Source: Octopus vulgaris (taxonomy: Eukaryota). From it: a DNA stretch of 64,000 nucleotides. The stretch lies in NCBI GenBank assembly GCA_951406725.2, contig OX597817.1, positions 54,684,001 through 54,748,000 on the forward strand, written 5' to 3'. Made by a program: the position numbers and the translations under genes. The notes under the pieces were generated by a model. The model was not told where the DNA came from. It saw nothing but the letters and a program-made list of their open reading frames with translations, and made no database searches. Of this stretch, positions 37,014 to 41,650 are shown one piece after another; position 1 is the stretch's first letter; each line of letters starts with the position of its first letter.

Positions 37014-37238
37014 TTATATATTTTTTATATATATATTATATATATTTATATGGTTTTCATTTAACTACAAATTGTTATATACACCTGTTTTTCTTTTAAT
37101 ATCCTCAAACAACCAAATAATCAAAAACTCACACCCTTAAGAGAGAACATTTATATATATATACACTTCTTTAACTCCCAAGAAAGAATATATATATTTT
37201 CAAAAATCAAAAGGAAAACAAACAAAAGAAAAACAAAC

Positions 37239-38471
37239 ATGACTAACTTGCAGGCCTGCAACAGACGAAATTGGTCTGATAACGAAATTGATGTTTTAAT
37301 AAATACATGGTTCTCTCTTTCCCAAACAGAAAATCTAAATGTCTTGTGTTTGAATGAGATTGCCGAAAAAACATCACAAGTGGTCAACACACGATCCGTC
37401 AAACAGATTCGTAGCAAGCTGAAACATATCGAAGTATCTTTCAAACTGATAAAAGGCCATTATGAAAAGCTTCTTCATATTTTCACAGTTCAAGAACAAC
37501 AACAGCTAGAAAATCAGCAGCCACAACAACAACAACAACAGAATGAGCCACTCCTGGTTCCCAGCACAATGGCTGACCCTAACATCGGTCAAGCACAACA
37601 ACAACAACAACAACAGCCACAGCAACAAGAACAACAACAGCCACTCCTCAACTCTAGCTTACTAGATGATTCACTAAATGCCAGTATCTTTTCACCGCTC
37701 TCACAGCAACCACCACAATTATCATCATCATCATCACCACCGCTGCCACCATCGTCTTCTATCACCAAAAATACCAACAGAAAACCAAATAAGAAACCAC
37801 TGCCCTCTTCCCCCACATCACCACCTCAATACTACTGCAGTAACAAAAACTTAAAGAAACATAGGAAGCAGAATGCCCCCCCCACAGCACAAACAAGAAA
37901 TCCCCAAATATGCCGCTATTCACTGCGCCAGAGACTCTGCACAAATAGTGACTGCATCTTCACGCATCTACCCGGCACTAGACGCACTACCGGCCAAGGC
38001 CAAAGCACGCATCCCACAATAATATCAACACCACCAAATAGTAAATCGAAATTCAAAACACACACAACTCGGAGTCCCAAAATCTGCCGGTATTCCCAAC
38101 GTGAGAGAACATGTCTACTGAGTGACTGTCCCTTCACCCATCTTCCAGGGACCCGACGCACAAACAGAAACGGGGCTTCAAGCCAACACACAAACCTGAA
38201 TAACAATAAAAATAGAAACACACCATGCTTCAGTAATGCTGGTCCAGTCTTTTCAGGAAGACACAAAAACAACAACAACAAAAGTGGAAACTACAACCCT
38301 ATCCAACAGTGCAACCACACCTCCAGCCAAAAACTGCTCCCTAAGCAGGAAAATTCTTTTTTAGCCATGTTGAACATGGCAAAAGAGATACACAAAAACA
38401 TTCTAGCCATCACTCAACACCATCCTATGCTATTACCCCAGTGCACCAATTCCCCACATTGCTGCCACTAA
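37239..38471 (+). CDS. LINE ORF1: Myb/SANT-like N-terminus, Q/S/P-rich linker, two CCCH zinc fingers
   Basis: 410 aa open frame; WSDNEIDVLINTW...RSVKQIRSKLKHI; two C-x8-C-x4-C-x3-H repeats at 37911-37967 and 38085-38141. Confidence 0.85.
   Translation: MTNLQACNRRNWSDNEIDVLINTWFSLSQTENLNVLCLNEIAEKTSQVVNTRSVKQIRSKLKHIEVSFKLIKGHYEKLLHIFTVQEQQQLENQQPQQQQQQNEPLLVPSTMADPNIGQAQQQQQQQPQQQEQQQPLLNSSLLDDSLNASIFSPLSQQPPQLSSSSSPPLPPSSSITKNTNRKPNKKPLPSSPTSPPQYYCSNKNLKKHRKQNAPPTAQTRNPQICRYSLRQRLCTNSDCIFTHLPGTRRTTGQGQSTHPTIISTPPNSKSKFKTHTTRSPKICRYSQRERTCLLSDCPFTHLPGTRRTNRNGASSQHTNLNNNKNRNTPCFSNAGPVFSGRHKNNNNKSGNYNPIQQCNHTSSQKLLPKQENSFLAMLNMAKEIHKNILAITQHHPMLLPQCTNSPHCCH
38357..38380 (+). promoter_or_regulatory. 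candidate -1 ribosomal frameshift signal
   Basis: T_TTT_TTA in ORF1 phase followed by hairpin GCCATGT-TGA-ACATGGC; the -1 frame is open from 38345 into ORF2. Confidence 0.6.
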
Positions 38472-41400
38472 CACACACAAAAAATCCAAGCCCCTTGCAA
38501 CAGTCAAAACCAGCCACTACACTAACCTCCACATTCCTACTCAATGCACAAGGTGTCAGCCCTTCCATCAATGCACAAAAATGGAAGGTCCAATTCATTG
38601 AAGACTGGGTTGGTAACCATTCACACCACATCCCTTTCTTCATTCTCACTGAGACCCACCTTGACAACTCCCACTTGGAAGCCGAAGTGAGAGTGAAGAA
38701 TTTCACAACCATCCGCGCGGATCGTATCGGCAGGAGGAAGGGTGGAACTGCCATTTTACTGCATGATTCATTTACGGCAGATGGAAATAGTATATTCTCC
38801 AACGGCTACTGTGAATCAGTCACCGTGCACAACAAAGCCAATGACCTGACAGTAATTGGGTTCTATAGGCCGCCCCAAACACCCATACTGTGCTTTCAAG
38901 AATGCCTCAACAGCATTAAGTGCTTTATTCAACAGTGCCATTCTAGCAACATACTCATGATGGGAGACTTCAATCTACCCTGTGTTGACTGGACTACAAA
39001 CTGTTTGAAACCAAGCACTCCCGCCTCAACCGCTGACAAAGAAGCAGCAGAGTCACTTTTCGACTTTACGAATGAGTTTTTCTTGTCCCAACTTGTCCTT
39101 GCACCAACAAGACATCAGAACATTTTGGACCTAGTGTTTAGTAACCACACTAACACTATACATAACGTTACAGTGGAAAAAACCCTTCTTTCAGACCATG
39201 ACATGGTTCTCTGTAACATGAAATTCCACCAGCCGAAAGCTAATCCTAGTGACCTTCCTCCAGCCCACCCATTTGACAACATGGATCTCCATAAAGCCAA
39301 CTGGGATGCAATCAGGAACGAGCTATCAAATGTTGACTGGTCCTTTACACATACACACATCTCCACCAACCATAAAACATCTTGGCAGATCTTTGTAGAC
39401 ACCGTCACAGTCATATGTGCAAAACACCCCCCACCAAGACCTGTGAACAAAAAGTGCAGAATCCCCCAAAACAGAAAAACCATTATCAGAAAAATAAAAA
39501 GAACAAACAAAAAAATTAACAAACTAAAGTACTGCCAACAGCAACACACACATTCGACGGCTATCGCACTGCTTGAATCCAAAAAATATAACCTCCAACA
39601 ATGCATGAAGACCCTCATCAATAACCAAAGATCAGCTGAGGAGAAGTGGGCCATTGAAAAAATCAAACTCAACCCCAAAGTGTTCTTTTCATTTGCGAGG
39701 AAACGCAGGGTCACTGTCTCCACTGTAGGCCCTCTAATTGACGAAACTGGCACTCTCCAAGATAATGCCAAATCCATGGCCGAGATACTGCAGAAACAAT
39801 ACTGCTCTGTTTTCAGCAATCCTGATATGGCCGATCTGGGCTGTATCAGTGATGTCAACCCCCAACACACTATATCGGACATAACGTTTAGTGCCCCTGA
39901 TGTCTTAGCGGCGATAAACGAAATAAAACACAATCCAGCAGTAGGCCCCGATAGGTTCCCTGCTTGTGTCCTGAAGGTGTGTCGACACCAACTTGCATCT
40001 CCCCTTGCTAATCTGTGGAGAAACTCACTGGATGCTGGCTATATTCCAAAAAACCTTCTGTCCCAGTCTGTTGTCCCAGTTTTCAAAAAGGGAAACAAGT
40101 CCCTTGCAGTGAATTACCGTCCGATCTCACTCACCTCTCATATCATCAAGGTATTTGAGAGGGTGGTGAGATCTCGAATAACCCAATTTCTGGAAAGCAA
40201 CAGACGGCTGATCTCCAACCAACATGGGTTCCGTAATGGAAGGGACTGCCTAACGCAGCTCCTGCATCACTTTGAGGACATTTTGAGAGCTTTGGGAGAG
40301 GGCTCCAACACCGATGTCATCTACCTTGATTTCAGTAAGGCCTTCGACAGGGTCGATCACAAGATCCTATTGAAAAAACTATACAACATTGGTGTCTCTG
40401 GAAAGTTACTGAAATGGATCAAGTGTTTCCTGACAGACAGATCTCAACATGTTGTAGTTGAAGGGGTAAAATCAAGCCCAGCCAAAGTCAGTAGTGGCGT
40501 TCCGCAAGGCACTGTGCTGGGCCCACTTCTTTTCATCATTTACATTAATGACATTAATGACATCATCAAGCACAGCAACATAAAAATCTTTGCAGATGAC
40601 TCCAAGCTACAGAAGGTCATAAATGAGGCGAGTGACCGGACATGCCTTCAGTCAGATCTACTGGCTGTTATCCAATGGGCAGAAAAAAACAATATGCTGC
40701 TGAACGAGGATAAATTTGAGCTAATCCACTTTGGAAAAGAGGATGCCCTGAAACTCCCATACTCCCTTCCTTCAGGTGAAACTCTCGCGGCGTCCAACAA
40801 CATCAGAGACTTGGGAGTAATTGTGGACAACAACATAAGCTGGGCCACTCATATAAACACCAAAGTTGACATGGCCCGCAGAATGTGTTCCTGGATTCTC
40901 AGAACTTTCCAGTCGAGAGATATCCACACCATTATCCTTCTCTTCTCCACTTTTGCCCGACCCCACCTTGAATACTGTTGTCCACTGTGGTCTCCCCACA
41001 CAATACAAGGTATCATAAAAGTTGAAGCACTTCAAAGGGCAATCACAAAAAAGATAGATGGCATGACAGGCCTCGACTATTGGGGTCGACTAGAAAAGCT
41101 AAAACTCTATTCTCTCCAACGTCGTCGTGAGCGCTACATCATCTGCATGATGTGGAAAATATTCCATCAGCATTGCCCAAATGATGTTGGCATCACCTTT
41201 AAGGTACATCCAAGGCTTGGGCCCCGTGCCATCCGCCCAAAACAAAAATCGCACTCTCATCTCATAACAACAATACGGCACAATTATTTCACCTCAATTG
41301 GCCCCGCTCTCTTTAACATTACACCAAAACACATTAAAACAGAAACTGACCCTATAGGGTTCAAGAAGTCTTTGGACAGATTCCTTCAAGAAATCCCGGA

Positions 41401-41476
41401 TAAACCCCCTACACCCGGATATGTCTCTGTAAACAATAACTCTCTACTTGAGTGGGCCATAGTGCCCAAATTCTGA
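38441..41476 (+). CDS. LINE ORF2: AP endonuclease plus reverse transcriptase (CR1 group)
   Basis: APE motifs NAQG, TETH, YRPP, GDFN, SDHD; RT motifs YRPISL, QHGFR, YLDFSKAFD, GVPQGTVLGPLLF, FADD; CR1-type tail RPHLEYCCPLWSPH, LQRRRER. The annotated start is GTG, not ATG. Confidence 0.95.
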   Translation: MHQFPTLLPLTHTKNPSPLQQSKPATTLTSTFLLNAQGVSPSINAQKWKVQFIEDWVGNHSHHIPFFILTETHLDNSHLEAEVRVKNFTTIRADRIGRRKGGTAILLHDSFTADGNSIFSNGYCESVTVHNKANDLTVIGFYRPPQTPILCFQECLNSIKCFIQQCHSSNILMMGDFNLPCVDWTTNCLKPSTPASTADKEAAESLFDFTNEFFLSQLVLAPTRHQNILDLVFSNHTNTIHNVTVEKTLLSDHDMVLCNMKFHQPKANPSDLPPAHPFDNMDLHKANWDAIRNELSNVDWSFTHTHISTNHKTSWQIFVDTVTVICAKHPPPRPVNKKCRIPQNRKTIIRKIKRTNKKINKLKYCQQQHTHSTAIALLESKKYNLQQCMKTLINNQRSAEEKWAIEKIKLNPKVFFSFARKRRVTVSTVGPLIDETGTLQDNAKSMAEILQKQYCSVFSNPDMADLGCISDVNPQHTISDITFSAPDVLAAINEIKHNPAVGPDRFPACVLKVCRHQLASPLANLWRNSLDAGYIPKNLLSQSVVPVFKKGNKSLAVNYRPISLTSHIIKVFERVVRSRITQFLESNRRLISNQHGFRNGRDCLTQLLHHFEDILRALGEGSNTDVIYLDFSKAFDRVDHKILLKKLYNIGVSGKLLKWIKCFLTDRSQHVVVEGVKSSPAKVSSGVPQGTVLGPLLFIIYINDINDIIKHSNIKIFADDSKLQKVINEASDRTCLQSDLLAVIQWAEKNNMLLNEDKFELIHFGKEDALKLPYSLPSGETLAASNNIRDLGVIVDNNISWATHINTKVDMARRMCSWILRTFQSRDIHTIILLFSTFARPHLEYCCPLWSPHTIQGIIKVEALQRAITKKIDGMTGLDYWGRLEKLKLYSLQRRRERYIICMMWKIFHQHCPNDVGITFKVHPRLGPRAIRPKQKSHSHLITTIRHNYFTSIGPALFNITPKHIKTETDPIGFKKSLDRFLQEIPDKPPTPGYVSVNNNSLLEWAIVPKF

Positions 41477-41565
41477 CTTGAAAGACTTCACCAGGTGGTG
41501 CTATTAAGTTAGACATGGCCTGGGCCAATAATGGCCGAAACCTATCAAAGTATCAAAGTATCAAA

Positions 41566-41650
<85 letters not shown>

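Follow-up and report, generated by a model that had tools for sequence, protein, structure and literature searches.

Introduction

How the ORF2 protein (ORF2p) is produced from bicistronic LINE RNAs is an old question that has been answered mainly for L1 and SART1. Frameshifting was once proposed, in the older literature, for some LINEs with overlapping ORFs. A LINE located within the window analyzed here, a stretch of 64,000 nucleotides from Octopus vulgaris, raises this question anew, as its ORF2 overlaps ORF1 in a different frame and has no ATG upstream of the endonuclease. A first-pass annotation of the same DNA had proposed that a retrovirus-style −1 frameshift joins the two ORFs at a heptamer of the HIV-1 gag-pol type. 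Here, we ask whether copies of the element, related families and more distant relatives are consistent with such a route, and how other explanations for ORF2 expression compare.

Results

An intact member of a young LINE family

The element (Table 1) lies in an AT-rich genome of 2.8 Gb and has the characteristics of an APE-type non-LTR retrotransposon, namely APE followed by RT in ORF2, 5′-truncated copies, and a simple-repeat tail. ORF2 matched PF14529 (E 3e-14), PF03372 (E 2e-07), and PF00078 (E 2e-30), and its best solved relative was L1 ORF2p (E 7e-23). The CR1 group, in the sense of Repbase, has an ORF2 without an RNase H domain. In the Pfam scan of ORF2 only APE and RT families were recovered and RNase H was absent; the label CR1-like is nevertheless a likely clade assignment only, as our tree contained no named CR1-group references.

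Position 37053 is a 5′ start shared by many family copies. A 501-nt probe returned 871 first-look candidate matches in the genome, and full-length copies differ from each other by ∼7–9 substitutions per kb in most cases, indicating a young family. Three copies (L252, L255, and L278) share at least 40 nt of extra 5′ sequence upstream of window position 37053, while their 3′ flanks differ where visible; the likely explanation is either a 5′ transduction or descent from an older subfamily whose 5′ end was longer. The CATGGCC-type motif near the 3′ end is common to six related families (e.g., L053, L059, L151, L157, and L159), among which the short tandem tails differ, with units of 8, 9, 5, and 7 nt among them. 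In these families, most copies are bordered by (TA)n-type microsatellites at one end or both, suggestive of a target preference.

Regarding ORF1, matches of its fingers to CCCH clusters in the Atlas scored below 0.8 and are treated as a lead only. A search for ORF1 homologues among proteins of 225–718 aa gave no match at E 0.001, and no relative was found in the viral contigs searched.

Table 1. Features of the element in the window, with predicted features included.
Feature	Position	Strand	Remarks
Full-length non-LTR retrotransposon (APE-RT LINE, likely CR1 group)	37053..41567	+	Young family; intact, 4.5 kb
ORF1, 410 aa	37239..38471	+	ATG 37239, TAA 38469–38471; Myb/SANT-like N-terminus, Q/P/S-rich linker, two CCCH-type fingers, short C-terminal helix-like segment
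Myb/SANT-like domain, ORF1 aa 9–74	37263..37460	+	PF13837, E 2e-05, 25.3 bits; under curated cut-off of 27
Two C-x8-C-x4-C-x3-H fingers, from aa 225 and aa 283	37911..38141	+	Sequence pattern; weak PF14608 match, E 0.09
TAA closing the −1 (ORF2) frame upstream of the slip site	38342..38344	+	Sequence
ORF2, 1043 codons	38345..41476	+	∼60-aa low-complexity linker, APE endonuclease, reverse transcriptase; first ATG 38957
Predicted 15-bp hairpin including U-run and 7-bp stem	38355..38388	+	−16.0 kcal/mol, z −5.9; 0/200 shuffles as stable
Slippery heptamer T_TTT_TTA	38357..38363	+	ORF1 phase, codons F374–L375; kept in relatives
ORF1 C-terminal hydrophobic helix-like segment (FL..M..)	38358..38423	+	Putative helix; would be missing from a shifted product
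Alternative stem-loop, candidate stimulator	38368..38419	+	4 nt past heptamer; −10.7 kcal/mol, z −3.2
Near-cognate TTG and CTG, ORF2 frame	38459..38464	+	10 and 7 nt before ORF1 stop
3′ UTR, CATGGCC-type motif and (TATCAAAG)3 tail	41477..41567	+	Motif common to related families of the same genome

The ORF1/ORF2 junction

ORF2 lies −1 relative to ORF1, which it overlaps by 127 nt, and its frame stays open between 38345 and 41476; the opening just after the TAA at 38342–38344, as given in the first-pass annotation, was confirmed. That annotation had also placed the first ORF2 ATG at the motif ILMMGDFN, past the APE motifs, and T_TTT_TTA exactly in ORF1 phase. We found the same: the ATG corresponds to residue 205 (nt 38957), after the endonuclease residues N67 (38543) and E103 (38651), and the heptamer, an HIV-1-type U6A motif, is in phase 0. 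There is no AUG at or near the ORF1 stop as in SART1-type coupling, the family having no ATG before residue 205. When the overlap of this element was resampled synonymously, a strict in-phase heptamer appeared in 0.7% of 1000 draws.

The frame offset cannot be ascribed to damage in this copy, given that an exact 29-mer across the slip site is present in 207 genomic copies and that contigs of 8/8 public runs (contigs drop variants) agree, carrying the same run without an indel. The ORF1/ORF2 layout belongs to the family itself. ORF2 could also acquire another start from a spliced or internally started RNA, a minor form of which would be dropped from contig data. Yet contigs from runs that we guessed to be RNA cover 37649–39200 or 38200–38560 unbroken, with no supported joint over the overlap, and such an RNA would leave the conservation pattern described below unexplained; we give this explanation hardly any credence.

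In-phase heptamers in related elements

Protein searches recovered five further families in the same genome (E, A, D, C, and B), all with a −1 overlap and with ORF2 identities to the window element of 78, 38, 37, 38, and 38%, respectively. The in-phase site is T_TTT_TTA in families E, A, and D, T_TTT_TTG in C, and A_AAT_TTT in B, and an ATG precedes the endonuclease in E, C, and D and is lacking in A and B. A Myb/SANT-like ORF1 N-terminus is found in the window family and, by eye, in families B, C, D, and E, while in family A a PHD-like finger and three CCCH fingers take its place. This suggests that ORF1 modules may have been swapped in front of a fixed slip site.

The wider comparison started from 162 loci, of which six represent the families, 80 come from metagenomes, and 76 from prokaryote assemblies. 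The last group (L171–L246) codes for animal-type LINE proteins and is probably eukaryotic contamination or host DNA binned into these genomes. In total, 102 of the 162 loci were dropped, 92 of them falling short of the N-terminal half of the endonuclease, eight having less than 60 nt upstream, and two having a broken frame; after removal of one misaligned and one duplicate row, 58 usable elements were retained. Many of the relatives have an ORF1 that, by eye, we take to be of the L1-like RRM/CTD type.

In 36 of these 58 elements, ORF2 lies −1 to an upstream ORF and is open from the shift site onward; five were binned as +1, five had a long in-frame N-terminus, and 12 had no upstream ORF. The bias toward −1 (36 versus 5) has a P of 8e-7. 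These counts were left uncorrected for L158, a −1 element with T_TTT_TTA that fell into the +1 bin owing to a broken ORF1; each of the four true +1 elements has an ATG. The first-pass annotation considered an ORF1–ORF2 fusion atypical for LINEs. This was too strong, as a −1 overlap containing a slip site is the two-ORF layout found most often among the CR1-like elements sampled, and a −1 shift is described for TRE5-A and TRE3-A of Dictyostelium in a review (PMC5911963).

Within the interval from the opening of the −1 frame to the ORF1 stop or the endonuclease start, a strict X_XXY_YYZ site in ORF1 phase was found in 28/36 elements, and the other two phases had 2 and 8. By comparison, 10.5 in-phase sites are expected if codons are resampled synonymously while the −1 frame is kept open, and 8.0 if the background rate applies. 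For 28/36, the nominal P is ∼6e-14, an overstatement given that kin share ancestry and are not independent. Allowing GGA as XXX as well as T_TTT_TTG raised the number of elements with a site to 33/36; eight of the 36 had no strict site, three of which (L140, L178, and L182) lacked even a relaxed one. The strict heptamers were T_TTT_TTA (10), A_AAA_AAC (9), C_CCT_TTA, G_GGA_AAC, and T_TTA_AAC (2 each), and three others found once each.

In a FastTree phylogeny of 51 loci and 16 proteins, which left out rows under 500 aa and contained relatives without named references, heptamer types varied between branches and were scattered over the tree. Given that the letters differ between branches, it is the motif class that was kept rather than the peptide. 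T_TTT_TTA occurs in 9/13 elements of the subclade of the window element (support 100) plus L072, whereas codon usage with Phe-Leu fixed would yield it with a probability of 0.004–0.021 per element (0.4–2.1%). In many A_AAA_AAC and C_CCT_TTA elements, a site would arise with 40–90% probability from the amino acid sequence alone. The 36 relatives with a −1 overlap span 27–100% ORF2 identity, and conservation of the heptamer and its phase, which the first-pass annotation had named as a check on its reading, extends to in-phase heptamers down to 27% ORF2 identity. Overall, the putative slip signal is conserved well beyond chance and beyond protein need.

Overlap geometry and start codons

The first strict site lies at a median of 18 nt past the upstream −1 stop, compared with the 19.6 nt expected if the upstream frame were free, and the overlap has a median length of 172 nt, while elsewhere in ORF1 the −1 frame has a stop at 10% of codons. 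From the position of the site and the long open overlap, we infer that the −1 frame is constrained from the heptamer on. An ATG precedes the endonuclease in 18/36 elements, compared with 22.7 by chance, and a strict site is present in 14/18 ATG-bearing and 14/18 ATG-less elements.

These numbers bear on termination–reinitiation near the ORF1 stop, which would give a separate ORF2 protein starting at CTG 38462 or TTG 38459 in the window element and at the ATG at −7 in its sister family, leaving the heptamer as a relic or a minor second route. This possibility is consistent with ORF1-dependent, AUG-independent initiation in L1 and with coupling in SART1, both reported in sections of PMC2881922 and PMC5009743. 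It is also consistent with sister family E (78% ORF2 identity), in which an ATG stands 7 nt ahead of the ORF1 stop, at the position of a CTG in the window element that, as a start, would leave the endonuclease whole, and with the clustering of ORF1 stops by the endonuclease start (−56 to +28 nt in 29/36). However, the conserved Leu-Asn codons of the endonuclease may themselves create an ORF1-frame stop there, and in 13/36 elements the ORF1 stop lies at or past the estimated endonuclease start. Moreover, upstream ATGs are scattered (offsets of −337 to +236 nt around the ORF1 stop) and no more frequent than chance, and reinitiation leaves unexplained the −1 frame bias, the long overlaps open from the heptamer, and the in-phase turnover of heptamers. 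We therefore consider reinitiation unlikely as the route to ORF2 in the window family, although in family E, because of its well-placed ATG, it may act as a second route.

The first-pass annotation had held that relatives with an ATG or with a single ORF would speak against frameshifting. Such relatives do exist, but the ATG occurs at chance rate and the heptamer is kept equally with and without it. Single-ORF relatives include P0019, P0042, and the five loci with a long in-frame N-terminus. In P0019, which is represented by protein only, CCCH fingers are fused in frame to APE-RT; this would fit an enzyme that tolerates fusion, and a copy with an indel could be an alternative origin.

Length variation of the T-run

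The six-T run of the heptamer (38357–38362) had five T in 100/313 copies and seven T in 6/313, and the five-T form creates a TAG in the ORF1 frame at the slip site. Other 6–8-base runs varied in a few percent of 54 normal or short copies, and in at most 7/53. In family C, the run was shortened in 16 of the best 100 of 123 matches and the adjacent A-run in 2/100, while shortened runs were found in 5/94 matches of family E and 0/26 of family A; by eye, this order tracks the strength of the hairpin containing the run. Short-run copies (among L247–L306) do not form a subfamily of their own, as they share haplotypes with normal copies. Given that they are found on all haplotypes, run shortening is recurrent; haplotype differences between the short and six-T samples arose because the six-T sample avoided the top BLAST hits. 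Two copies (L250 and L280) share the same 5′ flank and five private changes and differ in run length, pointing either to an assembly error or to a change that occurred later at the DNA level. More generally, T-run shortening reflects real copying slippage or assembly error. At this motif, HIV reverse transcriptase is prone to slippage in vitro (passages of PMC5737442), and template structure modulates slippage of this kind, according to excerpts of PMC5737552.

The same instability raises the possibility that the U-run is a polymerase slippage site, at which RNA polymerase II or the RT of the element adds a base and joins the ORF1 and ORF2 frames in some mRNAs or copies. The errors that HIV reverse transcriptase makes at this U6A motif in vitro include both −1 and +1 indels (passages of PMC5737442), and single copies with fused frames exist (L159). 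However, the usual change removes a base and leaves the frames unjoined, and the joining change accounts for only the six long runs; many relatives have sites that are not long homopolymers (G_GGA_AAC, C_CCT_TTA, T_TTA_AAC, and A_AAT_TTT); and sites are locked to the ORF1 phase, which a polymerase does not need. Short runs turn up on every haplotype, and there is no fused subfamily that has been amplified. A frame-joining polymerase thus appears very improbable to us, and the rarity of the joining length variant also rules out a fused single-ORF master family.

Predicted RNA structure around the heptamer

The first-pass annotation described a 7-bp hairpin directly after the heptamer, with the caveat that it lacks a 5–9-nt spacer and may not be the real stimulator. 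The hairpin is indeed predicted (GCCATGT/ACATGGC, 38364–38380, no spacer), but it is the top of the longer 15-bp hairpin of Table 1, and the caveat was well placed, as no stimulator structure was conserved among relatives in pseudoknot-free folds. This speaks against frameshifting, as does the strong hairpin of the window element, which has no spacer and buries the slip site. Folds resembling the 15-bp hairpin occur in families E and C and in L074 and are absent from most relatives. The alternative stem at 38368–38419 has one strand in common with the 15-bp hairpin, and its counterpart in the sister family is weak (z −0.9).

Across relatives, the downstream fold reached z < −2 at only 4/34 sites (mean z −0.62, P 0.006 versus flanking windows). 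Conservation of a hairpin across the subclade was weak at most, with z < −1.65 in 2/13 elements and a combined P of 0.017 versus synonymous draws that was driven by two elements. Two loci that are 80% identical (L081 and L176) share a 9-bp GC-rich hairpin ∼11 nt past T_TTT_TTA, with pair-preserving changes. We also considered whether the 3′ UTR pairs over a long range with sequence behind the slip site. The best duplex in the window involves the tail (−19.7 kcal/mol) and is the best of many tail windows, and in the sister family the tail is kept while the 5′ strand has changed without compensation (−8.8). Because of this uncompensated change and the choice of the best among many windows, such pairing is not supported.

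Discussion

Our comparisons make it probable that ORF2 is produced by programmed −1 ribosomal frameshifting into a predicted ORF1–ORF2 fusion of 1412 aa, because no ATG precedes the enzyme and an in-frame heptamer is kept in most distant relatives. A minor fraction of ribosomes would slip back one base at U_UUU_UUA in the ORF1/ORF2 overlap. By the rules of tandem slippage, the tRNAs on UUU and UUA would shift their pairing back by one base, which predicts the junction ENSF(L/F)SHVEHGK. The majority of ribosomes would continue to the ORF1 stop and yield abundant free ORF1p carrying the C-terminal helix-like segment. A hydrophobic pattern resembling this segment is found 3′ of the slip site in 11 of the 13 subclade members listed. 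The fusion would keep the Myb/SANT and CCCH modules, lose the C-terminal segment, and connect to the endonuclease through a ∼55-aa linker. As for the stimulator, the stem at 38368–38419 is a weak candidate that might form once the ribosome opens the hairpin hiding the U-run.

A broader scenario, which we advance only tentatively and consider doubtful as a whole, is that −1 frameshifting would be the normal route to ORF2p in a large, old branch of animal LINEs, whose enzyme would carry the DNA- and RNA-binding modules of ORF1 (Myb/SANT or PHD, CCCH) in cis, and that the hairpin-folded U-run would also be a hotspot of copying slippage, killing the ORF2 route in about one third of new insertions and limiting the spread of the family. 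The sequence comparison by itself suggests that a slip-site route may be used in many invertebrate lineages of CR1-like LINEs. In that case, the working enzyme would be an ORF1–ORF2 fusion, ORF1:ORF2 ratios would be set as in retroviruses, and ORF2 annotations starting at an internal Met would be wrong. The many distinct heptamers would also represent a new natural set of eukaryotic frameshift signals, which may use weak or unusual stimulators. A 130-nt cassette turns this rival answer to the question of ORF2p production into a directly testable one.

Among known systems, HIV-1 gag-pol offers the same arrangement of a U6A motif at the end of the first ORF and −1 entry into an overlapping enzyme ORF (passages of PMC5737442). 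In contrast to HIV-1, the element described here is non-LTR and has neither GGG past the site nor a conserved spaced stem-loop, and a protease domain was not found in ORF2 by the Pfam scan, so that the predicted fusion would not cleave itself. In the Dictyostelium elements TRE5-A and TRE3-A, which share the two-ORF structure with APE and RT, ORF2 depends on a −1 frameshift according to a review legend (PMC5911963); excerpts of PMC5006619 contain nothing further on this frameshift. A C-terminal zinc finger, a poly(A) tail, and tRNA-gene targets characterize the TREs (parts of PMC5911963 and PMC5006619), whereas in our element the tail is a short tandem repeat and ORF1 is of the Myb/CCCH kind.

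Human L1 and silkworm SART1 resemble the octopus element in having a bicistronic LINE RNA and an ORF2 that depends on ORF1 translation (sections of PMC2881922 and PMC5009743). However, L1 has non-overlapping ORFs and separate proteins and SART1 an overlapping stop–start, while the window element has a 127-nt ATG-less overlap from the heptamer. Drosophila HeT-A shifts frame within gag and has no RT (part of PMC5009743), unlike the ORF1-to-ORF2 shift proposed here, and for Paramecium non-LTR elements a +1 shift, reinitiation, or readthrough is only suggested in passages of PMC5405496.

In the literature search, from whose scope older subscription literature was largely excluded, we found no description of a conserved slippery site in CR1-like LINEs. 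Excerpts of PMC1965478, PMC7175516, PMC11835228, and PMC8535693 held nothing informative on LINE frameshifting, and those of PMC10294476 did not settle the clade. The words "frameshift", "overlap", and "CCCH" are absent from the main text of PMC13343379 and PMC4120745, as is "Myb" from that of PMC4120745. With the CR1-group LINEs (CR1, L2, Daphne, Crack, Kiri, and Rex1), the octopus element shares an ORF2 with APE and RT and a variable, modular ORF1 (sections of PMC13343379 and PMC4120745). Judged by its sequence and by these comparisons, it most likely represents a known mechanism, −1 frameshifting, in a class of elements where this mechanism is little documented.
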